Of a DNA stretch of 64,000 bases, positions 49,204 through 64,000 are shown piece by piece. Each line of letters opens with the position of its first letter. The first letter of the stretch is position 1. The stretch is from an uncultured Nitrososphaerota archaeon. GTDB lineage: Archaea; Thermoproteota; Nitrososphaeria; Nitrososphaerales; Nitrosopumilaceae. Below the pieces are notes generated by a model that did not search any database, was not told where the DNA came from, and saw nothing but the letters and a program-made list of their open reading frames with translations. The translations under genes were made by a program, and so were the position numbers. The DNA is taken from the NCBI GenBank assembly GCA_963824385.1, contig CAWGPD010000004.1:384001-448000 (forward strand). The letters are read 5' to 3'.

Positions 49204-50413
49204 TTATGGGTATGCCCAGATCTGTTGTCCGTTGTATTTTATTTGAGCAAGACCTGCATAGTCCAAGTTTTGTAGGACACCTGGTAATGGAGCATAACCT
49301 AGTTTTCCTGCATATTGCTGGCCGTCGGATAGCATCCAGTAGAGCATGTAGACTAGATCATTTGCTTTTTGTTGACTCTCACCCTTGATCTGATCAAGAT
49401 TTGGATTCACCAGTAGATATGTGAATGATGAGATAGGATATGAGTTTGGACCCGCTACATTAGCAATCGACACATGACTCCAATCTCCGTCTGAAGTTGG
49501 CAGTGAAGATATTGCACTTGATGCAGCTGCTTCAACATTTGTCATGGTTGGTTGAAGAAATGCAGTTCCGTCAGCGTTTTGAATATATGCATATGGCATA
49601 GGAACTTTGCCCGAGCCTGCAACTAAACCTGCACCGCTGCCGGTATTAGTTGTCAAGAAGTTATGTGTGGCATATCCATATTCAACATATCCTAGTGAGT
49701 CAGGAACGGTCTTGACTACATTGGCAACTCCAGCATTACCTGAGCCTCCAATTCCTCCTTTCCATGGAACAGATGTTCCTTTTCCTACTTCTCCAGCCCA
49801 GTCATCACTGACTTTGCTAAGATAATCGGTGAAGGCATATGTTGTTCCAGAACCATCAGATCTGTGTACAAGAACAATCTTGTTTCGATCATCTTTCAAT
49901 GCTTGTGCAATATTTGGATCTGTTTGAAGACTTACTATAGCTGGATCATTCCAGGTAGTAATTTCACCCAGATAGATTTTTGCTATAACATCTCCTGTTA
50001 ACAAGAGTCCATTATGACGAACTCCTTCAAGATTGTAAGTCATAACTATCGCGCCCATTGACTCTGGAATAGTAAGAGTTCCTGGTGGAGCTTTTGCAAT
50101 TTGAGCTGTCTGCAATGGAGCATCAGTTCCTGCAAAATCTACCTTACTTGTCAGAAACAAGCTTGATACCAGCGCCACTACCTACTGATTGATAGTTCAA
50201 TTTGATTCCTGGGTATATTTGATTAAATTTAACTCTCCATTTATCCATTAATGGATATATGAAAGTTGAACCCCCGGAATTGTATTTGAATTTATCACCA
50301 TCGGCAGGTGGTGTCGGACCGGGATTTGTACTCTGTGCATGCGCACTAAGAACAGTTGTCGGTACTAAAAGAATTAACATTAATGTTAATCCTAGTAAGA
50401 CTTTTTTTGTCAT
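49204..50413 (-). CDS. pstS: Phosphate ABC transporter substrate-binding protein, copy 1 (apparent frameshift near 50160)
   Basis: Signal peptide, GSTFIYP, YQSVGSGAG, DFAGTD, RSDGSGTT, YPISSFTY. Confidence 0.92.
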
Positions 50414-50619
50414 TGAGCTGATCTAAAACAATTGGTATTTACATAAGATCGACATAGATCATGTAACTAACTATATGCTACATTGATTTGTGAAATTCAT
50501 TTGTATACAACATAAGTTATAGAATCACCATAGTAAGAGATTAAAACACATTTATTGTGAATGAAAAAATCCAATAATTTTTAGGTGTTGTTTTAGAATC
50601 GTACGACTTGCAGATCAAA

Positions 50620-51085
50620 TTAATGTATTATCAGTACTGGACAGGTAGCATTTTCCAAAATATGTCTACTAACACTTCCTAGAACTTTTTTTTCAATACC
50701 TTTGTGCCCTTGACTACCCATAACAATTAGATCAACATCATTTGTTTTTACAAAATCAAGTACTGCGTCTCCTGGTTTAGGCTGAGATTATCTCATAGTC
50801 TGCCTCTACTCCCTGTTTCCTGCAATATTCCACAGTTTCTTGAAGTATGTGATCTGCCTTCTTTGCTGCAACATCTACATACTCATCAAATGATTTATTC
50901 CAGTCCACCCCCTGAACCATTCCAAAAAACATGCCTGGCGGTTCAAGCACTGGCGTATGCACCGCCATAATAATACTAAACTCAGAACCAAAATCTTTTG
51001 CAAGCTTGAGGGCTTCATCAAGTGCCCTCTGTGCATATTTCGAACCATCAAATGGAACTAAAATGTGCGAATAAATTTTTGTCAT
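50620..51085 (-). CDS. Universal stress protein (apparent frameshift near 50780)
   Basis: ILVPFDGS; shifted C-terminus DLIVMGSQG...LGSVS...CPVLII. Confidence 0.88.
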
Positions 51086-51396
51086 AACGTATGTTGTATC
51101 CCAATCTATTATAGTAGATGAAAAATATCACGTATGAGAACTATGAGTATTATGAAAATATGAATAGATAATAATTTATCTATAGAAATCATATATGAAG
51201 AAAAATCTATGTAATTCAATCCGAGGCATAATACTCAGATTGTCAATTGAATTGTTAACAATGTATTGAACATTGTAATACCTTAGACACTAGATTTGCG
51301 GATTTATCCAATTGTAGCAACTTAAGAATTGATAATTTTAAAAAAGTACCGAAATAAACCAACTGTGGAATGATAATTTTAAAAAAGAAAAAGAGT

Positions 51397-52613
51397 TTAG
51401 AGTTTTGGACTAAATCTCAGTCCAGTCTTTGCTGAAACTGCAATTATTGATACAATTGCAATTGCAAGAACTAGAGCTGACGATTGGGCCAAATTCTGGT
51501 ACTGCTGCATTACCTGCTGGTGCTATGGTACTGGTTATTGCTTGACCATTGAAGGTCACTGTAGCAAGTCCATCCATGTCTACCTTCTTAATGGAATCTG
51601 GTAATGGCACATACAACAACCCTGAAGCATATTGTTGACCATCATTAACTATCCAGGTGATGAAATTTATCACCTCGGTTGCCTTGTCCTGCGTTTCCCC
51701 CTTAATTGTACTCATGTCTTGATATATCATGACATAAGTCAATGTGGATATTGGGTACGAGTTACTTCCTGGTTGGTTAACAATTGATACTTTACTCCAG
51801 TCTCCGTTTGATGCTGGCAAGTTTGAACCAGCTGCTGCGGCGTCCGCTGCAACACTGTCAAGAGTTGGCTCTACAAATGCAGTTCCATCCGCATTTTGGA
51901 CAAATGCGTATGTCATATTGCTTTGATAAACATATGCAAGTTCTACATAGCCTACAGCGTATGGTGTAGTTTTTACTATGTTAGCAACACCTTCATTTCC
52001 TTTTCCTCCAGTACCAACTGGCCAAGGGACTGACTTTCCTTTACCTATTTTAGTATTCCAATCAGGACTGATTTTGGAAAGATAGTCAGTAAAAGCATAT
52101 GTTGTTCCAGAACCATCAGATCGGTGAGATACTACAATATTTTGACTTGGTAGAGTTGTTCCCGGATTGAGGTTTGCTATTGCAGGATCATTCCATGAGG
52201 TTATGTTGCCCATGAAGATCTGTGCAATTACAGGTCCTGTAAGTTTTAGGCCTTTATCAATTCCAGGAAGGTTATATGCAATTGTTATTCCCCCTATTGA
52301 ATCTGGAATGGTAAGTACTCCTGGTGCATTTTGTTGATCAGTTGTTGATAATGGTGCATCAGATGCTGCAAAATCCACATTCTTTGCTTCTAAGAGACTT
52401 TATTCCTGCTCCACTTCCAAGTGACTGGTAGTTGAGTTGGATGTTCTGGTAGATTTTGTTGTATTGAACTCTCCATGTATCCATTATTGGAAACACGAAT
52501 GTTGAACCTGCTCCTGTTATCGTATAACTTGTCTGTGCAAGCACCGGTAATGACATTGCTGGCACTATTAGAATTAGCATAAATGCTAATCCCAGAATGA
52601 CTTTGTTTGTCAT
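51397..52613 (-). CDS. pstS: Phosphate ABC transporter substrate-binding protein, copy 2, with PEFG-CTERM anchor (apparent frameshifts near 52390 and 51478)
   Basis: GAGSTF, GSGAG, DFAASD, RSDGSGTT; C-terminal AVPEFG plus TM helix after frame correction. Confidence 0.92.
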
Positions 52614-52673
52614 GTAAACTGTGCAAAAAATATCATATTTACCTTTGCCTACCATAGTTTTCATGTTAATATG

Positions 52674-52689
52674 AAATCTATATAGATTT
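52674..52689. promoter_or_regulatory. Perfect 16-bp palindrome AAATCTATATAGATTT upstream of pstS copy 2
   Basis: Core CTATATAG recurs at other phosphate-island promoters. Confidence 0.55.
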
Positions 52690-52722
52690 GACCTAGTGAA
52701 ATAATTTTTATAAATTAAACTA

Positions 52723-53346
52723 CTAATAGGTTCTCGTACCAGTTACAATATAGTTTACCGAGTCACCTACGAATGCCGCATGGTCTGCCATTCTCTCCAT
52801 ATATCTTAGAACCAAGGCATCAGCAAGAGCACATTTTACATTACCAAGCATTATCAACATTGGCAGGTGTTTGTTATAATATTTATCAACAAGATCTTCA
52901 TCAGTTCGCAATTCATGAGCCTTATTAAGATCAAGGGTTGCAAAACATTCTACAGCAAGTTTGACCATCTGTTTAATTTCACCAGATAAAGTATAGATTA
53001 CTTCATTCTTACATTCAGTGAGATCTCCAAAAGTTTCACGAACCATTGTTATGTCATATGCATATCTACTCAATCGTGTAAATCCATATGAAATCTCAAG
53101 TGAGGAACGAATAAGCCTAAAGTCACTTGCAACAGGCTGATACCTAAGAATCATTTCAAATGTCAAATCACCAACTTTGTCATACAAATTCATCATTTGA
53201 CTAGAGAGTTCATGAACCTGTTTTCTAGCATTTTGTCCACCCAAGTAAGAGTCGATTGCAAGATTTGCAGATTGGATAGACAAGTCTGACATTTGTTTCA
53301 TCATTTCAGATAAATTTTGTAAATGTGGATCTATAAGACGTGTCAT
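52723..53346 (-). CDS. phoU: Phosphate transport regulator PhoU
   Basis: YQPVASDFR, YMERMADHA; follows pstB. Confidence 0.92.
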   Translation of the reverse strand: MTRLIDPHLQNLSEMMKQMSDLSIQSANLAIDSYLGGQNARKQVHELSSQMMNLYDKVGDLTFEMILRYQPVASDFRLIRSSLEISYGFTRLSRYAYDITMVRETFGDLTECKNEVIYTLSGEIKQMVKLAVECFATLDLNKAHELRTDEDLVDKYYNKHLPMLIMLGNVKCALADALVLRYMERMADHAAFVGDSVNYIVTGTRTY

Positions 53347-54159
53347 TATCCAAAATGGCCTTGAACATACTTTGCGGTTAACTCATTTCTGGGATTTTCA
53401 AATATTTGTTTTGTTTCTCCAAATTCAACCAAGTCTCCAAGATACATAAAGCCAGTATAGTCAGAAACTCTGGTTGCTTGTTGCATATTGTGTGTCACAA
53501 TAATTATCGTGTATTCTTTTTTTAGTTCATGCATCATCTCTTCAATTTTCTGAGATGCTATAGGATCAAGAGCAGAAGTTGGTTCATCCATTAAAAGAAC
53601 TTCTGGTTGAATAGCAAGTGCTCTAGCAATACACAAACGCTGTTGTTGTCCTCCAGAAAGACCCATTCCTGGTTTTTTCAGATCTCCTTTTACTTCCTCC
53701 CAAAGTGATGCCATCTTAAGACATCCTTCCACCACTTCGTCAAGTATCTTTTTATCTCTGACTCCATTTAGTTTTAGACCACATGCAACATTATCGTAAA
53801 TGGACATTGTAGGGAAAGGATTTGGTTTTTGAAATACCATTCCTATTTTTCTTCGATTTATAATAGGATCTACTTTGGTAGAGTAAAGGTCCTCACCATC
53901 AAGCATAACTTTTCCTGTCAGTGTAGCATTCTTTGTAAGCTCATGCATTCTGTTTAAACATCTAAGAAATGTTGTCTTTCCACATCCAGAAGGTCCTATA
54001 AGAGTCTGTAACTGCCCTGTCTCGAAACTTCATTGATACATTCTTTACAGTTGCTATACCGTCATAGCTTGCAGTAATATCTTCTGCAATGAGTTTGTAT
54101 TTTACATCTTCAGTTGAAATCCCCTTTACAGGAGTTCTTGTAGTTGCTGTCTCCATCAT
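53346..54159 (-). CDS. pstB: Phosphate ABC transporter ATPase (apparent frameshift near 54005)
   Basis: GPSGCGKTT after frame correction, [25 protein letters not shown]. Confidence 0.95.
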
Positions 54160-55076
54160 GATACAGCTCTCTTTCTCTTGAACCTTAAAAATGTTTTTTC
54201 TTTATTTCTCAAAAATATATACCTCACACCAATATTTATTGAAAGAACCATGATTATCAAAATAAATGCTGCCCCCCATCCTTGAGTCACTGCACTGTCA
54301 TATGGGAGTGATGAGAGTCTCCATATCCTAAGCGGAAGTGCGTCAATTGGTCCATTAAAGTCTGATATGAAGTCGCTGCTACCAAGAATTGTGAATATAA
54401 GAGGTGCTGTTTCACCAGATATTCTTGCAACTGCTAACAAAATTCCAGTTACAAGACCATTTTTTGCACCACTGAGTACAATAGTAAAAACTACTCTATA
54501 TCTCCTAATTCCTAAAGCATATCCAGCTTCCCTATATGTGACAGGTACTAATTTGAGTGATTCTTCGGTTGTTCTCATTATTATTGGCAACATAACAATA
54601 GAAAGTGCAAATGAACCAGCCCAGACAGAAAAGTTCCCTACTGTTAAAACAATTAAAACAAATGCAAACACACCAATTACAATTGTTGGAAATTCTGCAA
54701 GTACGTCATTGAAAAATCTAACTGTCCTACCATATCTATTGTTACCATATTCTGAGAGAAATATTCCACCCATCACACCAACCGGAACTCCAATTAGACT
54801 AGACATTCCAATAAGCACCAAAGTTCCTTGAATAGCAGGACCAATTCCTCCTGGGTCATCACTTCCTACAGCTCCAGGTACTTCAGTGAGAAATTCCCAT
54901 GTTAACGCAGGTGCTCCATTACTAAAGACATTGACTAAGATAGCCAGCAGTGGGACAATGGCAACTATCACACATGAAAAGACGATACACTTAACAATTT
55001 TGTCCAGTACAAGTCTCCTACCTACGTTATAACGAAAATGTTTTCTAAATTCAGCTCTTTGTTCAGGAGTAATCAT
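54156..55076 (-). CDS. pstA: Phosphate ABC transporter permease PstA
   Basis: PTIVIG, EESLKLVP..YREA..ALG, ARISGETAPL. Confidence 0.95.
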   Translation of the reverse strand: MITPEQRAEFRKHFRYNVGRRLVLDKIVKCIVFSCVIVAIVPLLAILVNVFSNGAPALTWEFLTEVPGAVGSDDPGGIGPAIQGTLVLIGMSSLIGVPVGVMGGIFLSEYGNNRYGRTVRFFNDVLAEFPTIVIGVFAFVLIVLTVGNFSVWAGSFALSIVMLPIIMRTTEESLKLVPVTYREAGYALGIRRYRVVFTIVLSGAKNGLVTGILLAVARISGETAPLIFTILGSSDFISDFNGPIDALPLRIWRLSSLPYDSAVTQGWGAAFILIIMVLSINIGVRYIFLRNKEKTFLRFKRKRAVS

Positions 55077-56041
55077 GCCAGTACTGCTCCCTCGTGAGAC
55101 TTTACTACTCTAGCAACAAGAAGATGTGCAATTACATTGATGGTAAAGGCCATAAGGAAAAGAATTAGTCCAATACCAATAAGAGCTGCTAAATGAAGAC
55201 CACCTTGAGAGGCCTCAGCAAATTCATTTGCCATTATAGTAGCCAATGTTTGGCTAGGTTGGAATAATGAGGTTGGAATTGCAGCTGCTCCAGTTGCGTT
55301 TCCTATCAACATTGTAACTGCCATTGTCTCACCCACAGCTCTTCCAAGACCCAATATTGTAGCACCAATTAATCCAGATTTAGAATATGGCAATACTGCA
55401 AGTCTGAAAGCTTCCCATTTTGTAGCTCCAAGCATATATGCCGCTTCACGCTGACTATTTGGAACTGCCAACATAATCTCTTTTGAAATAGAAGCAATGG
55501 TAGGAATTATCATAATGGCTAAAATAATACTTGCTGTAAGAATATCTAGTCCAAAAGGAGTTCCTGCAAATATTATGCTCTTGTCTCCAAAGAAGTTATG
55601 AAGTGGAGTCTCTATCCAGTCTTGGATATAAAATCTGAATACAAGCAAGCCCCACAATCCATACACTACACTTGGAATAGCTGCAAGAAGCTCTATGATC
55701 ATAGAAAGAGGGGTCCTCAATAACCTAGGGGAAAGTTCAGAAAGAAACATGCCAATTCCAAAGCTTAGAGGTACTGCTATTAGCATGGCAATTCCAGCGT
55801 TAACTATAGTACCCATTATGTAAGGAAATGCACCATAAGATTCTCTGTCTTCAACAGAGTTCCAGTCAGAGCCTGTAAGAAATGATATTCCCTCTTGCTG
55901 CCAAACTTGTGCTGAACCGGTTACAAGATTAATTACAATCATTGCAATAACTACAAGAACATACGTGGCTGCCGCTAAGGCAACAATTTTAAAAATTTTA
56001 TCTACATGAGGTGACCCTTTATTCATTTTAATGGTCATCAT
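55073..56041 (-). CDS. pstC: Phosphate ABC transporter permease PstC
   Basis: ELLAAIPSVVYGLWG, EAAYMLGATKWE, GRAVGETMAV. Confidence 0.95.
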   Translation of the reverse strand: MMTIKMNKGSPHVDKIFKIVALAAATYVLVVIAMIVINLVTGSAQVWQQEGISFLTGSDWNSVEDRESYGAFPYIMGTIVNAGIAMLIAVPLSFGIGMFLSELSPRLLRTPLSMIIELLAAIPSVVYGLWGLLVFRFYIQDWIETPLHNFFGDKSIIFAGTPFGLDILTASIILAIMIIPTIASISKEIMLAVPNSQREAAYMLGATKWEAFRLAVLPYSKSGLIGATILGLGRAVGETMAVTMLIGNATGAAAIPTSLFQPSQTLATIMANEFAEASQGGLHLAALIGIGLILFLMAFTINVIAHLLVARVVKSHEGAVLA

Positions 56042-56100
56042 TACATATTTTCAAGACATTAGATTAGATATCAGAGGATCGACCATGATTTCTTAAATCT

Positions 56101-56135
56101 CATAGTTCAATATAGAACTATATAGTCATATATAG
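56101..56135. promoter_or_regulatory. Four (C/T)ATAG repeats phased at exactly 10 bp between divergent pstC and regulator
   Basis: catag 56101, tatag 56111, 56121, 56131; includes palindrome ACTATATAGT at 56117-56126. Confidence 0.55.
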
Positions 56136-56180
56136 AAATAGGGGGCAAGTGCTTTAATTATAGGATATATAATAAAATCA

Positions 56181-57233
56181 TTGTCCGAAGTACTAAACGA
56201 TAGAGAGGTTCGAAAACTACAACTTGTTGGGGGATCCACGTATGTTCTATCTCTTCCCAAAAAATGGGTCGATGAGCTGAAACTAAAGACAGGAGATTCT
56301 GTTTCAATAATTAAAAATGTCAACAAATCGCTTTCAATATTACCAACGACAAACACTTCAAGTCCAAAGCTTTCAAAATCAAAGACAGTCATTAGTCAAA
56401 AAGATAGTGTAGAATCAGTTCAAAGAAAGATCATTGCAATGTATCTATCAGGTTATCAGATTATAGAAATTCATGCAAAAGGAGGAAGAATTCAATTAGA
56501 ACACAAACAGGCAATAAGAGATCTTGTAAGAAAAAACATGATCGGAACTGAAATTGTAGAGTCTACACCCGAATCACTTACAATTCAGGTTTTAACCAGC
56601 CTTCCAGAACTTTCAATTAGTGATGCCCTCAAGAGGATGTTTTTACTCACGTCAACAATGCATAGACAGGCAATTGATGCCCTAAAAGAAATGGATGTGG
56701 AGTTAGGAGAAGAGATTACTCATCTAGATGATGAAGTAGATAGATTCAGTCTATACATACTTAGAAATTTAACACTTGCAGTTGAACATGAAAAGATCCT
56801 TCGAGATGTAGGACTCAAAAAACCATCAGATTGTATTAGTTATAGAATAGTGGTAAAATCAATTGAAAGAATTGCAGATCATGCAGTATCAATTGCAAGT
56901 AGGATAAAATTTTTAAAATCAACTTTGGAACCTGCGTTGATACAAAAGATAACTCGCCTAAGTGAAGAATCACTCAAAGTTTTCGAGGACTCTATTTTGG
57001 CATTAAATAAGAGAGACTATGCACTTGCAGATAGTGTTGCAACCAATGCGTGCAGGATAACTGAAAAAGAAAAAGAGTTTACAGATAGCCTTGAGGAATC
57101 AAAGAAATACTCTAGTGTGATCAAGTTTGTCTTAGAAGATATTCGTAGAACTGCAGAATATTCTAGTGACATTGCAGAAGCTGTAATTAATGAAACCGTT
57201 CAGGATGTAATTTCTGAGAACATATCTCCATAA
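56181..57233 (+). CDS. Archaeal phosphate uptake regulator (AbrB-like DNA-binding domain plus PhoU repeats)
   Basis: RKLQLVGGSTYVLSLPKKW, DDEVDRF, ERIADHA. Confidence 0.92.
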   Translation: MSEVLNDREVRKLQLVGGSTYVLSLPKKWVDELKLKTGDSVSIIKNVNKSLSILPTTNTSSPKLSKSKTVISQKDSVESVQRKIIAMYLSGYQIIEIHAKGGRIQLEHKQAIRDLVRKNMIGTEIVESTPESLTIQVLTSLPELSISDALKRMFLLTSTMHRQAIDALKEMDVELGEEITHLDDEVDRFSLYILRNLTLAVEHEKILRDVGLKKPSDCISYRIVVKSIERIADHAVSIASRIKFLKSTLEPALIQKITRLSEESLKVFEDSILALNKRDYALADSVATNACRITEKEKEFTDSLEESKKYSSVIKFVLEDIRRTAEYSSDIAEAVINETVQDVISENISP

Positions 57234-57317
57234 CAAGAAAACAAACACGTTTTATCTATATAGATCACTTGTCCTATATAGAGCAGGTATTTATCTATGA
57301 ATCTTATGAGACCCAAT

Positions 57318-57950
57318 ATGGCAAAATGGTTGTCTTGGATAAAATCAAATGACAAAGAAATTATTGCAATATTAAATGATTCTGCAGGCAAAGCAGAAGA
57401 GTCTGCAAAACTGCTAGTTGATTTATTTGCAAACTTTGATAAATTAAATGAGAATCATGCTGAAATTGAAAAACTAGAAAAAGAAGCAGACAAACTTACA
57501 CATTCCATTTTTGAAGAATTAAACAAGACATTCATTACCCCTCTAGACAGAGAAGATATTTCCAGGATTGCATCAAAGACAGATGATATCATAGATTACA
57601 TTGATGGAATAGTGGGAAGAATAATTGGTTTTAAAATAAAATCTCCTCCACCATACATGCTTGAAATGGCAAAAGAAATTCACAATTCCACAAAGGAAAT
57701 TAATTTAATGATTACAAGATTAAACAAAGTAAAGGCAGACAAATCACTAATTGAACACTGCCGGGTAGTAAATGAACAAGAGCACAACGTTGACGCTATT
57801 TTTCGTAAAGCCATAGGAGAATTATTTGAGACAACGGATGTTATTAATATTATAAAAATGAAAGATACCTATGAAGCACTTGAGAACGCTTCAGATAGAT
57901 GCCTTGATGTAACTGATTCCATAGAGGACATTGTTCTCAAATACACATAG
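57318..57950 (+). CDS. DUF47 (PhoU-like) PiT accessory protein
   Basis: EKEADKL, TFITPLDREDI, LENASDRC; upstream of pit; alternative start 57297. Confidence 0.9.
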   Translation: MAKWLSWIKSNDKEIIAILNDSAGKAEESAKLLVDLFANFDKLNENHAEIEKLEKEADKLTHSIFEELNKTFITPLDREDISRIASKTDDIIDYIDGIVGRIIGFKIKSPPPYMLEMAKEIHNSTKEINLMITRLNKVKADKSLIEHCRVVNEQEHNVDAIFRKAIGELFETTDVINIIKMKDTYEALENASDRCLDVTDSIEDIVLKYT

Positions 57951-57959
57951 GTATTTTCT

Positions 57960-58951
57960 ATGATTGAATTAGCCATAGGTGCGATTGTAGCAGCACTAGT
58001 TTTTGATTTCCTTAACGGATTCCATGATGCAGCAAATTCCGTTGCAACTGTAATAGGCACTAGAATTCTAAGACCACTTCACGCTGTATCAATAGCAGCA
58101 GCTGCCAATTTTATTGGTCCATTTCTCTTCGGAGTTGCAGTTGCAACAACAGTGGGAAAAGGAATCATCAATCCAGATTTTGTTACACTCAATATAATCA
58201 TCGGGGCTCTTGTTGGCGGCATAGTATGGGATATTTTCACATGGCTGCTTGGTTTGCCTACATCAAGTAGTCATGCATTGGTAGGTGGAATTATAGGCGC
58301 TGGAATAGCAGGAGCTGGAACCAAGGTAATAGTGATTGACGGGATACAAAAAGTTGTCATGGGAATTCTGGTCTCCCCCATTGCAGGTTTTGCAGCAGCA
58401 TTTGTAACTGGATTAGCGATAATGATGATATTTGCAAAAGCAAAACCTCATGCGGTAAACTCTGCGTTTGGAAAGCTGCAATTAGTTTCTGCTACATATT
58501 TTTCATTAACCCACGGAGCAAATGATGGACAAAAAACAATGGGAGTCATTGCTTTGATTTTACTAACTCAGGGAGTAATTACAAAATTTAGTGTTCCATA
58601 CTATGTGATCATAATGGCTGCATTAGTGTATAAGCCTTGGAACATTTTTTGGAGGATGGCGCATAGTAAAGACAATGGCAGTAAAGATTACTCAGCTTAG
58701 ACCATACCAAGGTTTTGCTGCAGAAACAAGTGCAGCTGACAATACTTGCAACTCTTGCATGGTTCGGAATTCCAGCAAGTACAACTCATGCCATATCTGG
58801 AAGCATAATGGGAGTAGGTGCAGTAAGAAGAATGTCAGCAGTAAGATGGGGCATAGGAAAAAGGATCGTATGGGCATGGATTATAACAATACCTGCTAGT
58901 GCGGCAGTATCATTTGTAATTATGCTACTCATAAAAGTAATATCACATTAA
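57960..58951 (+). CDS. pit: Inorganic phosphate transporter, PiT family (apparent frameshifts near 58628 and 58738)
   Basis: NGFHDAANS, PTSSSHA, HGANDGQK, PASTTH. Confidence 0.93.
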
Positions 58952-59068
58952 TTATAAAATTTCAATCATACCATAATCAGACATTTAATTAAAGTCAGTA
59001 TACAATTATCAAATTCTTTTCGTATCATAAAATAAACAGATCATAACTTAAAAGAACAGGGTATTATT

Positions 59069-59882
59069 ATGAATATAATGAAAGAAACTTTAGATTTTGA
59101 CAAGAAATTATTCTTCAAAAAATTTGAAAAAATTCAAGAGAAATTTTATCAGCAATTACAAGATTACATAAAAAAGCCAAGTGATGAAAATATCCATGAT
59201 ATTAGAGTTGCAATTAGACGTTTAGAGACAGCTTACAAAATTTTGCCAAAGAATTTGAGGAAAAAAGAAAAAAATACAAATTATGTAAAACAAGTTAAAA
59301 CACTTTTTAAATTAAATGCAAAGATAAGGGATTATGATATAATATGTGCAAAAATGGAATCCAAGTATAAAGACCAAACATATGATTTGGTAGTTATTCT
59401 AAAAAATGCCAGAATTGAAAAACTTCATAGTGCTAATGAAATTGCATTAAAAATCCTACATGCATCTACTCCCAAGATCTCTGTCCAACATGATAAAAGA
59501 ATCAAAATTGAATAAGAGATATTTCAAAATATTGGGCAAAATAGAATTGGACATTCAAAAAAATACAATTATTGCACTTGGAGATGAGAAAAAAATAGAA
59601 GAGCTGCATATGCTAAGAAAAGATTTTAAAAAATTACGATACTCATTTGAATTAGCATCAAGTAAAGGAAAAACAGTCCAAATCCTCAAAAATTTAAAAG
59701 AAATTCAAGATATGCTTGGCGATGTTCATGATAGTGACATAATTATCGATAATCTTAGAAGTATTGAACAAAATTCAAAATATTTAGACATCATAGAATC
59801 TGAAGTTTTAGAAAGGAGAAAAAAATACAATGCGTTTGTAGATGCCTTTAAGAAAATAAAACCAAAGGCAGGATATTTCTAA
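59069..59882 (+). CDS. CHAD-domain polyphosphate-binding protein (apparent frameshift near 59482)
   Basis: IHDIRVAIRRL, RDYDI, LHMLRKDFKKLRY, QDMLGDVHD. Confidence 0.9.
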
Positions 59883-61403
59883 CTATAATTCAAGGATGGA
59901 GCTTTGTGGACTTCCCAGATAGGGACGAGTTGAGAGAATAACTTTAACATCAAATACAATCTCAAACTTTTTCAAGGCATCTTTGAGTAAAAATTTCTGA
60001 GTAGAACGTGATTGGGTGATGGTGATTTCTATTATTCTTGTCCCATGTTGTTTTAATTCAATCTTTGACTTGGTTCTTTCAAGAATCTTTCTTAGAGTAA
60101 TCAATGCGGAGATTTTCTTCATAGATATCTTATCTTGTTGAGATAGAATTGTTCTGTATCGGGCAAATAACCAGTCGGATGTCTTAGTATGTCTTGCATG
60201 TACTAGAGAAAGTCCTAAGACTAGTTGATCATTATGATCAAGCGGAATATCTTCATCCATGATTGAATAAAACACACTCTGTGGACTACTAAATGATGAT
60301 TTCTCTGACATTATTTTTTCAGCATAATCAAGTATCTTTCGTCTCTCTTTTAGAAATGAGTTTGATAGATAAAGAGTGTTAAGAAAAGATTCTTTTTCCA
60401 GAACTTGTGATACGTGGTTCATCAAGACCGATTGTTTTTCTAATTTGTTCAGCAGTAAGGTATCCATCATGATACGCCTTTGGATCTTCCAAGAATATTG
60501 AAAGTGCTCCCTCTCTGAGTCCATGGTTACTTACATACAAATCTGAAAAATCGTATTTTTCCATCAATGTCTCAATTACATAAGAGCCTGCAATAATTGT
60601 CTCAGATCTACTAGAACCCAAGACTGAGATCTTTGAAATATCATCCGAACTCATTTTTGACAACCCACTAATTGTAGAATCAAGAGATTTACGACTAATT
60701 TTGTAATTATGAATTTTATCCAATGGATATAATGAAACTCTTTGCTCATATCTAGCCAAGGCACGCAATGCACCACCAACCCCAACAAGCTTTACATCTC
60801 GACTCATGCCCAAATCTTTTTTGCTAGGAAGAAGATTCCAGATGTGTCGTTTTAGGTCCTTGAGATTTTTTTCAGTGAATTTACCTCTTCTGCCATCAAA
60901 TTGATGTGTCAATCGTAGAGCTCCGAGAGGTAATGAGATTACTTTTTTTATCTTGAATCGTTCTGCGTAAACAATCTCCAAGCTACCACCTCCAATGTCA
61001 AAAAATAATGAATCGGGAATATGAAGTGATTTTATTGCACCCACATATGAGTACAGAGCTTCCTCTCGTTCAGATAGAACTTTGAAATTAAATCCAGTTT
61101 CTTTAGAAACAACATTTAGAAAGTTTTCCTTGTTACGTGCCTCTCTTACTGCACTAGTAGCAATAGGTAGGACTGATTTTATAGGATTTAATTGAATTAT
61201 ATCTCTAAAAACTTGTAGTGTATCTATTGCTCTTGACATGGGTTTTTTTCCCAATTTGCCTTTTTCGTCAAGTCCTTCTCCTAGTCTTACTTTGATTCCT
61301 TCTTGCTGATAAACATCAAACGAATCATCATCTTTGACATTATAGATGACCAATTTAGCAGAGTTAAAACCAAGATCGATTACAGATATTTTCAGTTAAA
61401 CAT
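59883..61403 (-). CDS. ppx: Exopolyphosphatase Ppx/GppA family (uncertain start; apparent frameshift near 60415)
   Basis: VIDLGFNS, ATSAVREA, EEA, DIGGGSLE, LPLGALRL, GLREG. Confidence 0.92.
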
Positions 61404-61487: not shown

Positions 61488-61986
61488 CTACGATATTTTC
61501 TTCAAAAGTTTTGGAGTAAGCAACCATCTTAGATCTCCTTTGAGTTTAGGCAGTATAGCCAGTACTCTTATCCTAGCTAGTCCAGCTCTTCTTTAGATCT
61601 ATTCTACAATCAGATTGAGATATAGATTCACTAATCATTTGGCTCAGATATGGTTCATGACCCACTACAAGCACTACAGATTCTCGTTTTAACTTTGACA
61701 AGGCAGAGTAAAATTCTAGTCTGCTTCCTTCAGGTTTCAAGGCATCTAATTCTTCGATTTTACCTTTGTATTTGAGAGATTTTGCTACAAGTTCAGCTGT
61801 ATTTTTGGCTCGTAAGAGAGGACTAGTAAGGATATAATCCAATTTCACTTCCAAGAATTTTAGACCATTTGATAGATCTAGAATCTCTTGACGTCCATCA
61901 GGGGTAAGTGTTCTCTTAAAATCCCCCGATGATGGAGATCGTTTTCCCGCGTCACCGTGTCGTAGCACTAACAGATCCATAGACAA
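61488..61986 (-). CDS. sixA: Phosphohistidine phosphatase SixA (apparent frameshift near 61588)
   Basis: RHG, R.LT..G, SPLLRA, VGHEP; corrected tail KKAGLA...LRWLLTP. Confidence 0.9.
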
Positions 61987-62225
61987 GTCATCAGTTTTTC
62001 AAATATTTATGAGTTAAAGAAGGTTTGGCGTTACAACCATAATGTAGATTTGAAATGAAATTGCAAACCGTCTACACCATGAATTATTATTTTTTTTAGT
62101 GTTACATTTACTATATAGATCATAGTCATTAATTGATGAAATTTTACAAACCGCATGATAGATGGAAAAATGGCAGTAAAACCTAAAATTGCCGTCATGT
62201 CACAAAGTAACTCGAGATAAGAAAA

Positions 62226-62897
62226 ATGGAAAAAAGAGGAAAACTAATCATAGTTGAAGGCATAGACGGTTCAGGAAAATCAACTCAACTTCATCTTTTA
62301 GAAAAGTGGCTTGCATTCAAGGGTGTCAATGTTTTCAAGTCAGAATGGAATTCTTCTGAAATGGTAAAAGAGATCACATCCAAGGGGAAAAAGAAAGGAT
62401 TACTCACTCCAACTACGTTTAGTTTATTGCATGCTACAGACTTTGCAGATAGATATGAAAGAAATATCTCACCATTGTTAAGAGCAGGCTATTTTGTATT
62501 AGCAGATAGATTTGTCTACACTGCATTTGCAAGAGACATTGTAAGAGGTTGTAATCCTGCATGGGTAAAGAAAGTGTATGATTTTGCAGTCAAACCAGAT
62601 GTTGCGTTTTACTTTAAAGTTCCAGTAGACATTGCAGTTGATAGAATTCTCATTGGTAGACCCAAGCTAAAGTATTACGAAGCTGGAATGGATATGAACT
62701 TGAGTAATGACCCATATGAGAGTTATAGAATTTTTCAAGGAAGAATAATTGAGCAATATGACTCACTTGCAGAAAGTGAGGGGTTTACCATAATAGATGG
62801 AACACTAAACATTGAAGAACAACAAAATATGGTAAGAAAAAATATCATGCCACTTTTAGAAGACATGAAACCAACCAGGACGAGGGCAAGGAGATAA
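62226..62897 (+). CDS. Thymidylate-kinase-fold P-loop protein A (candidate polyphosphate kinase subunit)
   Basis: EGIDGSGKST, LADRFVYT, KPD, YYEAGMD. Confidence 0.8.
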   Translation: MEKRGKLIIVEGIDGSGKSTQLHLLEKWLAFKGVNVFKSEWNSSEMVKEITSKGKKKGLLTPTTFSLLHATDFADRYERNISPLLRAGYFVLADRFVYTAFARDIVRGCNPAWVKKVYDFAVKPDVAFYFKVPVDIAVDRILIGRPKLKYYEAGMDMNLSNDPYESYRIFQGRIIEQYDSLAESEGFTIIDGTLNIEEQQNMVRKNIMPLLEDMKPTRTRARR

Positions 62898-62900
62898 GAC

Positions 62901-63632
62901 ATGACGCGAGACAAATACAAGGATCTTGGAACCAGAACTGTGGAATTTTATGGTCATGGAATAAAGAATTTGCAAGACACTGAAATTAAGGGAAAATTGA
63001 TTGTTATTGAAGGTCCAGACGCATCAGGCCGTAGCACGCAGATCCAATCAATCACTACAAGATTGGAAGCAGATGGTCATGCAGTACTCAATACTGGCCT
63101 TAAAAGATTAGAACTTGTTGGCAAAGGAATATTGGAAGCAAAGGAAAATTACACATTGGGTAAGAAAACTCTAGCGTTATACTATGCCGCAGATTTTGCA
63201 GACCAATTTGAATACAAGATTATTCCCGCATTGCAAGCAGGATATATTGTCCTTGCAGACAGATACATCTACACACTCATAGCAAGAAATTTGGCAAGAG
63301 GTTTGGACAAAACTTGGTGTCACAATTTATACGGATTTGCAATCAAGCCAGACATTGTATTTTATTTAGATGTTGAACCATCAGTCTTGATACACAGAGT
63401 TTTCCAAAAGAATTCTACATTAGACTATTACGAATCAGGGGCAGACATGGGACTATCAAATGATATGTACGAATCATTTTTAATTTATCAAAAGAGAATA
63501 TCACAAGAGTTTCATTTGATGCAAAAAAGATATGGTCTTGTACCTATCAATGGCAACAGAACTATGCTCGAAATTCATAATGACTTACAGAAGAGAATAG
63601 ATAATTTTCTTCGTCGGGTTGGTCACAAATAA
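62901..63632 (+). CDS. Thymidylate-kinase-fold P-loop protein B with altered Walker A (candidate partner subunit)
   Basis: EGPDASGRST (K to R), LADRYIYT, KPD, YYESGAD. Confidence 0.8.
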   Translation: MTRDKYKDLGTRTVEFYGHGIKNLQDTEIKGKLIVIEGPDASGRSTQIQSITTRLEADGHAVLNTGLKRLELVGKGILEAKENYTLGKKTLALYYAADFADQFEYKIIPALQAGYIVLADRYIYTLIARNLARGLDKTWCHNLYGFAIKPDIVFYLDVEPSVLIHRVFQKNSTLDYYESGADMGLSNDMYESFLIYQKRISQEFHLMQKRYGLVPINGNRTMLEIHNDLQKRIDNFLRRVGHK

Positions 63633-63669
63633 ATAGAAAACTAACTTATTACACGTGCTCAAAAATTCC

Positions 63670-64000
63670 TTAAATTGGATCATGCGAAGATACTACATTT
63701 TTTACAGTATTTTCAGTTGTCTCATGAGATTTGACAAACTTGATCTCTGTTAGAGTAGCATACTCCGCTTTTCCTTTTGACATTGGAACTAGAATTTTTT
63801 TCAACTTTTTTAGATGTTCAGTTTTTTCATGTGTTTTCTTGGCATTTTTATCGGTAAAGGACATGATATGCACAAACGAGGAACTGTCATCAGCATCCTG
63901 AAACACTTTGTATTCAATTGTTCCCGGTTCATTCTTTTTTACTGCGTCTACATACTCGGACAGTGCATCTTTTGCTTTAGCAAGTTTTTTCTTTTTCACG
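63670..64000 (-). CDS. Antibiotic biosynthesis monooxygenase (ABM)-domain protein, 5' end beyond window
   Basis: NEPGTIEY.VFQ...FVH...F...A...H. Confidence 0.75.
   Translation of the reverse strand, partial: VKKKKLAKAKDALSEYVDAVKKNEPGTIEYKVFQDADDSSSFVHIMSFTDKNAKKTHEKTEHLKKLKKILVPMSKGKAEYATLTEIKFVKSHETTENTVKNVVSSHDPI

Follow-up and report, generated by a model that had tools for sequence, protein, structure and literature searches.

A tandem pair of thymidylate kinase-like genes in a Nitrosotalea-like archaeon likely encodes a two-subunit polyphosphate kinase of the PPK3 family

Two adjacent genes annotated as thymidylate kinases in an uncultured, ammonia-oxidizing Nitrososphaerota archaeon from soil (assembly GCA_963824385.1) are very probably members of the PPK3 family. 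By analogy with the characterized family member, their products, here termed A and B, would form a two-subunit polyphosphate (polyP) kinase, with A as the main catalytic subunit and B activating it by binding. Both genes lie in the window, by which we mean the whole stretch of 64,000 nucleotides that was analyzed (contig CAWGPD010000004.1, positions 384,001 to 448,000; Table 1).

PPK3 is a family of heteromeric polyphosphate kinases (Höfmann et al., J Biol Chem 2026, PMC12995831; preprint 10.1101/2024.08.28.610084). SaPPK3 from Sulfolobus acidocaldarius consists of Saci_2019 (cPPK3), which is a polyP kinase by assay, and Saci_2020 (rPPK3), which shows no activity alone but increases the activity 6- to 10-fold when combined 1:1 with Saci_2019; dTDP was produced by neither protein. 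The reaction is reversible with ADP as the preferred acceptor, an approximately 50-fold bias towards ATP formation and an equilibrium ATP/ADP of 3-4, and the enzyme is an alpha2beta2 heteromer in S. acidocaldarius (PMC12995831). A first-pass annotation of the window, made from the sequence alone, had pointed to a heteromeric PPK of this organism built from TMK-annotated proteins, and this paper is indeed in print.

The pair described here has already been predicted there: PPK3 and PPK2 are assigned to the genus Nitrosotalea, which was scored for PPK3 from tree and neighbourhood, Nitrosotalea okcheonensis is listed in Data S1 with PPK1 0, PPK2 1 and PPK3 1, and the Nitrososphaeraceae are named as a main PPK3 holder (PMC12995831). 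Judging by the names of the nearest database relatives of B (Nitrosotalea or Nitrosopumilales, 90-96% identity), our archaeon belongs to the same genus as N. okcheonensis, and its genome has the same PPK1/PPK2/PPK3 profile. In the literature searched we found no assay of a PPK3 from an ammonia oxidizer, a group for which the enzyme is predicted only, and the sole assayed PPK3 in these papers is that of the thermoacidophile.

Results

The ORFs of A and B are separated by 3 bp, as the first-pass annotation had described for two adjacent P-loop paralogues, and the proteins share 39% identity over 206 aligned amino acids (E 4e-54). The motifs it had listed are all present in the translations: GSGKST (Walker A), DRFVYTAFAR and YYEAGMD in A, and ASGRST, DRYIYTLIAR and YYESGAD in B, in which the Walker A lysine is changed to arginine (R44) and the DRX arginine is retained (R121). 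Neither protein has a REP/EP motif, the corresponding place being taken by EWNSS (A) and TGLKR (B). This absence had been taken as a mark against thymidylate kinases (Tmk); it holds as an observation but has little discriminating value alone, because the separate tmk of the genome also deviates there (SFPDY).

B is extended at its N-terminus by about 25 aa. Residues 1-27 (62901-62980) contain a Y/G-G-I-x-Y/N-L block that is conserved in Nitrososphaeria second copies, and an extension of this type is missing from the second copies of Sulfolobaceae. The YYE(A/S)GxD-type motif was found in 31/31 first and 28/29 second copies of Nitrososphaeria, in 60/62 first and 58/60 second copies of bacteria (in a sample that includes the best 80 of at least 545 loci) and in none of 30 Sulfolobaceae copies; on these counts it is a mark of lineage.

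The pair is intact in the assembly: one short-read contig (run X2) covers 62004-63664 with a single differing letter and no gaps. Compared with its counterpart in the related genome G429, B differs at 52 codons synonymously and at 9 non-synonymously, and is thus under purifying selection.

Table 1. Features of the window and related genes elsewhere in the genome (G000).
Feature	Position	Strand	Size	Basis or remark
Gene A, cPPK3-type (predicted catalytic) subunit	62226..62897	+	223 aa	
Gene B, rPPK3-type (predicted partner) subunit	62901..63632	+	243 aa	
Divergent intergenic region sixA / gene A	61987..62225		239 bp	
SixA-like histidine phosphatase	61573..61986	-		TIGR00249 76.4 bits (cut-off 74.5)
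Ppx exopolyphosphatase (Ppx-GppA)	59883..61353	-	ORFs 324 + 213 aa	PF02541 E 4e-52
CHAD-domain protein (polyP-binding family)	59069..59882	+		PF05235 on both pieces; break near 59483
Phosphate-uptake cluster: two pstS, phoU, pstB, pstA, pstC, AbrB-PhoU regulator, DUF47, PiT	49204..58951			
Separate canonical tmk	G000:C2:106573-107109 (L001:1471-2052)	-		PF02223 E 1.7e-38; TIGR00041 116.9 bits
PPK2	G000:C4:312113-312814 (L004:1426-2289)	-	287 aa	Sole PF03976 match in genome; ~72 kb before window

To place the pair, we identified the SaPPK3 references as the proteins whose sequences are identical to the accessions given in PMC12995831. Over 207 aligned residues, A shares 51% identity with Saci_2019 (E 2e-75). 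For B, the identity to Saci_2020 is 32% over 176 aa (E 2e-32), and that to Saci_2019 is slightly higher (34%, E 3e-42). The best solved relative of both is STK_15430 of Sulfurisphaera tokodaii (PDB 2plr, 4nzy, 4rzx, 5h70), which entered the PDB as a dTMP kinase and has been reclassified as a cPPK3 (PMC12995831). A matches it (2plr/5h70) at E 2.7e-65, fifty orders better than any true Tmk, with the next match at 2.6e-15; for B, the match by sequence is at E 2.3e-35. An AlphaFold2 model of B (pLDDT 85.5) adopts the dTMPK fold, with 5h70 as top Foldseek match (TMq 0.78).

Only thymidylate-kinase-type models match either protein: PF02223 with E 2e-21 for A and 8e-22 for B, and TIGR00041 with 86.9 and 84.0 bits, just over the cut-off of 83.25, which accounts for their annotation. 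Passing TIGR00041 does not discriminate, since the PPK3 protein Saci_2019 passes it as well (105.8). The PPK2 domain (PF03976) was matched by neither A nor B.

A maximum likelihood tree (IQ-TREE, LG+G4) was calculated from 63 of 225 collected sequences, comprising 26 pairs across lineages and 11 single tmk genes; 90%-cluster or congeneric neighbours (L023) stood in for the Saci pair itself. All 52 pair members were split from the 11 canonical Tmks at 100/100, and the first copies, including A and the Sulfolobaceae catalytic type, formed one clade (100/97). FastTree with all 225 rows, including the Saci pair, likewise placed the pair clade apart from canonical Tmk (0.936). In the unconstrained IQ-TREE tree, which came with a long-branch warning, the second copies were paraphyletic; a constrained tree with a single second-copy clade scored 2.6 lnL higher and passed the AU test (p 0.547). 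G66, Y95, Q102, L126 and D175 are common to B and Saci_2020 and differ from the first copies. Two bacterial second copies (L082:928-1602 and L116:5648-6316) took the sister position to the first copies as a whole, and the catalytic-type profile gives them the higher score; they are possibly the least diverged second subunits.

A matches 60 of the 61 columns that are near-invariant in first copies, columns common with Sulfolobaceae, and has K55, K56, K57, H69, R76, R95, R103, R107, R145 and K149, which agree with Saci_2019 by class and served as a proxy set for the polyP cleft. The pair thus consists of adjacent dTMPK-fold paralogues of which, by orthology, A is of the catalytic and B of the regulatory type. 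As in SaPPK3, the paralogues are in tandem with the catalytic type first and belong to the same clade, and the genome has a separate canonical tmk, no PPK1 match, and ppx, sixA and CHAD genes nearby. The phylogeny proposed as a check in the first-pass annotation therefore separates A and B from canonical Tmk and groups them with the Sulfolobaceae pair types. Its reading of a catalytic and a regulatory partner, drawn from the GRST sequence of B, stands as a type assignment by orthology; GRST marks most second subunits but is not the change held responsible for the inactivity of the assayed subunit (PMC12995831).

The inactivity of rPPK3 has been put down to two features, the exchange of the DRX arginine and the absence of a basic cleft, with Saci_2020 and STK_15420 as the only rPPK3s named in the alignment legend (PMC12995831). 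B shows the reverse state: Saci_2020 combines a Walker A lysine (SSGKTT) with DGY, and the S. tokodaii partner STK_15420 also reads DGY, whereas B combines a Walker A arginine (ASGRST) with an intact DRY. We therefore do not assign B to the Sulfolobaceae-type rPPK3 subtype, whose DRX arginine is replaced. Membership in PPK3 is independent of the residue, because the paper counts Nitrosotalea by tree and neighbourhood (PMC12995831).

We took a residue census of 108 first and 104 second copies, omitting one duplicate locus and one second copy of less than 150 aa. The sequences are related and were found through first-copy similarity, including the best 80 of at least 545 loci, so that all counts hold for this sample only. 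Within it, the DRX arginine occurred in 29/29 second copies from Nitrososphaeria and 60/60 from bacteria (89/89 outside the Sulfolobaceae) and in 0/15 from Sulfolobaceae, and the arginine equivalent to R103 of A was distributed identically. The Walker A arginine occurred in 29/29, 59/60 and 11/15 second copies of the same three groups, and an extra arginine at B69 in 28/29, 56/60 and 0/15, in a column that is serine in all 108 first copies. The published reason for inactivity is therefore not transferable to B. In the accessible text of PMC12995831 and its preprint we did not find the point that rPPK3s outside the Sulfolobaceae keep the DRX arginine.

B keeps 37 of the 61 near-invariant first-copy columns, compared with 24-29 in Sulfolobaceae second copies. 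It has lost K18, E40, W41, N42, H69, R76, R145, K149 and R204, which are fixed or nearly fixed in first copies, and because of these many losses it is most likely non-catalytic, by another route than Saci_2020. A purely regulatory role is not secured, because B retains the DRX arginine and is slightly closer to Saci_2019; it may retain an anion-binding site.

A PPK3 with a working second site, in which B binds nucleotide or polyP in an allosteric, chain-holding or slow second active site, would be compatible with the favoured reading, and we regard it as possible, if doubtful. It draws on the four conserved arginines of the census and on the conservation of the Nitrososphaeria second copies, which is about that of the first copies (mean identity 0.68 vs 0.70). 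The residues lost from B argue against it, the conserved arginines could have a structural role or belong to an interface, and the sample is one of related sequences chosen by first-copy similarity. Moreover, a Walker A lysine-to-arginine exchange usually abolishes phosphotransfer, an effect for which we found no passage in the literature searched. We consider somewhat less likely still a broader proposal: the tested Sulfolobus rPPK3 would be an eroded outlier, and the second PPK3 subunit of ammonia-oxidizing archaea and bacteria would keep an arginine-rich phosphate site (in B: R44, R69, R121, R129, R133, R166) for the binding of polyP or nucleotide; this site would sense them allosterically, hold the chain or be a second active site. 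If true, most PPK3 enzymes would be regulated otherwise than the published one.

Structure prediction supports the idea that A and B bind each other. The predicted 1:1 complex scored 0.61 in comparison to 0.00 for the best control, a pass that may reflect likeness to the solved Tmk and STK_15430 homodimers; as a rough guide, since own alignments were used, 116 of 157 solved complexes and 2 of 215 mismatched pairs score at least this high. At least 93% of contacts recurred between the model runs, and the partner pLDDT was at least 83. Contacts were predicted between the equivalent helices A61-79 and B86-105, which we take to be the usual Tmk dimer face, and additionally to B18-23 in the N-terminal arm. 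PDB-related searches returned no solved structure of STK_15430 together with its partner.

Occurrence of the two genes was strictly coupled in a phylum sample: 29 of 401 genomes, including our own, matched A at E 1e-25 or better, and in 29/29 the second copy lies directly downstream of the first. In a draw from the genus, 25 of 36 genomes hold the pair. A scan of species genomes yielded at least 600 candidates, of which at least 545 were confirmed; among the best 80 of these loci, both copies occur in the order first-then-second in 77, and the three single-copy loci comprise one at a contig edge and two from one MAG. The latter (L043:4246-4935 and L044:3500-4237) encode catalytic-type copies with no second copy within 5 kb and 1.7 kb downstream, respectively; their partner may be elsewhere or lost. 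In 63 of the same best 80 loci, at least one of ppx (60), sixA (43) and CHAD (29) lies within the 5-kb flanks.

In our window, ppx, sixA, CHAD and pst genes all adjoin the pair in a divergent arrangement. The proximity of SixA, Ppx and CHAD noted in the first-pass annotation is borne out by the TIGR00249, PF02541 and PF05235 matches. In the phosphate-uptake cluster, Pfam matches were obtained for PhoU, AbrB-PhoU, DUF47 and PHO4; the pst gene names were assigned from motifs in the translations and are thus presumptive. The neighbourhood does not form one operon, because sixA-ppx is divergent from the pair across the intergenic region and CHAD lies on the plus strand beyond ppx, facing it. This differs from S. 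acidocaldarius, where the pair is inside a sixA-ppx-c-r-CHAD operon, as does the full pst/pit cluster next to A and B. An AT-rich block in the intergenic region, CTATATAGA at 62111-62119, is invariant in 8/8 aligned relatives and is a candidate TATA element. On the other side, a small ABM-family (PF03992) gene (63670-63999+, minus strand) converges on B; it is found at the same place in G429 and not in G175.

Several genes of this region are interrupted by single-base indels (50159, 51480, 52398, 54005, 58627, 58738, 59483, 60340-60403, 61426 and 61588), namely both copies of pstS, pstB, pit, CHAD, ppx and sixA. The indels were seen against G429, and likewise against G422 and G175 where aligned. 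The broken genes are whole in G429 and G175, and the indels are missing in the short-read contigs; one of the runs may be the source of the window itself. The indel near 61588, which shortens sixA, was absent from 4/4 runs; in G429, sixA encodes 165 aa, ppx is one ORF of 489 aa and CHAD one of 267 aa, and the true ppx start is probably upstream of 61353. The indels are therefore likely assembly errors, and genes of this genome that look like pseudogenes should be treated with distrust. The stretch 57245-59119 (1.9 kb; DUF47 and PiT transporter) is missing from one contig of run X4, and in G422 the 57-64 kb block is joined to different DNA; the island therefore varies among close strains.

The first-pass annotation had seen no ppk1 or ppk2 in the vicinity and proposed the pair as the polyP enzyme of this archaeon. 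The relationship to PPK3 stands, but the pair is not the sole such enzyme. PPK1 was not found in the genome (assembly 86% complete), whereas a full-length PPK2 is encoded by a gene separate from A and B. PPK2 has a P-loop fold and carries out polyP-driven nucleotide phosphorylation (PMC12995831). The protein scores 497.6 with NF042973 (ADP-polyphosphate phosphotransferase, cut-off 450), and among solved structures it is closest to 6an9/6au0, labelled class III. The gene has a GC content of 0.398 in comparison to 0.359 for the genome and is flanked by what we take to be a stomatin-like and a universal-stress-like gene, named by their motifs. As the genome has a PPK2, the argument from a missing enzyme does not apply, and A and B make up only one of its two candidate polyP kinases. 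This also distinguishes the archaeon from the Sulfolobus system.

The co-occurrence of both kinases bears on a second alternative, namely a PPK3 relative with another acceptor or direction (e.g. mainly polyP synthesis, or GDP or AMP as acceptor) that divides the work with PPK2. PPK2 is patchy in the genus (30/61 genomes) and by hand count is present in 15 of the 25 genomes of the genus that have the pair and in 3 of the 11 that lack it; ppk2 is divergent just upstream of the pair in 6 of the best 80 of at least 545 loci (L091, L101, L106, L108, L112, L114), mostly from Acidobacteria; and the lid motif of the pair is unlike that of Sulfolobaceae. Yet A keeps nearly all of the near-invariant columns common with Sulfolobaceae, and only 5 of the 28 other genomes holding the pair encode a PPK2, with none among the 14 of the Sulfolobaceae family. 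The pair is thus not dependent on PPK2, because 23 of these 28 genomes have no PPK2 match, and we consider this alternative improbable.

The genome contains exactly three PF02223 matches: A, B and a stronger one on contig C2. The search for a separate tmk suggested in the first-pass annotation was therefore successful, and the pair is not the only tmk of the genome. The C2 protein is 22-24% identical to A and B; its best solved relatives are eukaryote-type thymidylate kinases, and it has FP and NRY in place of the usual EP and DRY. A and B share with canonical thymidylate kinases (PF02223, TIGR00041) the fold, the P-loop, the DRX motif and the lid arginine, but differ in the columns of the dTMP site and are separated by a long branch. 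At two columns, whose dTMP-binding roles we assume, 11/11 Tmks have arginine and tyrosine where A has F73 and R103, respectively. Neither protein clusters with single-copy dTMPKs or carries their dTMP-site residues. The annotation itself, under which at least one of the two proteins would be an additional thymidylate kinase or another NMP kinase, is highly improbable: the reading has on its side the PF02223 and TIGR00041 matches and the initial description of STK_15430 as an unusual thymidylate kinase (Biswas 2017, as cited in 10.1101/2024.08.28.610084), and against it the separate tmk, the tree and the dTMP-site columns, the lack of dTDP formation by Saci_2019 and Saci_2020 (PMC12995831) and the fact that the STK_15430 report monitored ADP formation only (via 10.1101/2024.08.28.610084).

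Discussion

If A and B form a PPK3 enzyme, its mechanism can be sketched from SaPPK3 (PMC12995831). ADP or ATP would be bound in the P-loop of A and polyP in a basic cleft in place of the dTMP pocket, with the DRX arginine R95 of A clamping both phosphates. The reaction would be Mg2+-dependent and reversible, with the formation of ATP from polyP and ADP favoured and polyP synthesis expected only at a high ATP/ADP ratio. A and B would pair through the predicted helices A61-79 and B86-105, and an alpha2beta2 tetramer is assumed from Sulfolobus. In the cell, phosphate imported by Pst and PiT may be stored as polyP and held by CHAD, and the store may be converted to Pi by Ppx or to ATP by PPK3, a job that PPK2 likely shares.

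With this assignment, two 'dTMP kinase' annotations would be corrected, and a Nitrosotalea-like archaeon would have two candidate polyP kinases, PPK3 and PPK2, with a phosphate-uptake island around the former. What our analysis adds to the published prediction is that the reported cause of inactivity of the regulatory subunit holds, within this sample, for the Sulfolobaceae alone. A pair such as A and B, from a soil organism, would exemplify the form of the enzyme that is in the majority here and might be used to regenerate ATP from polyP at moderate temperature.
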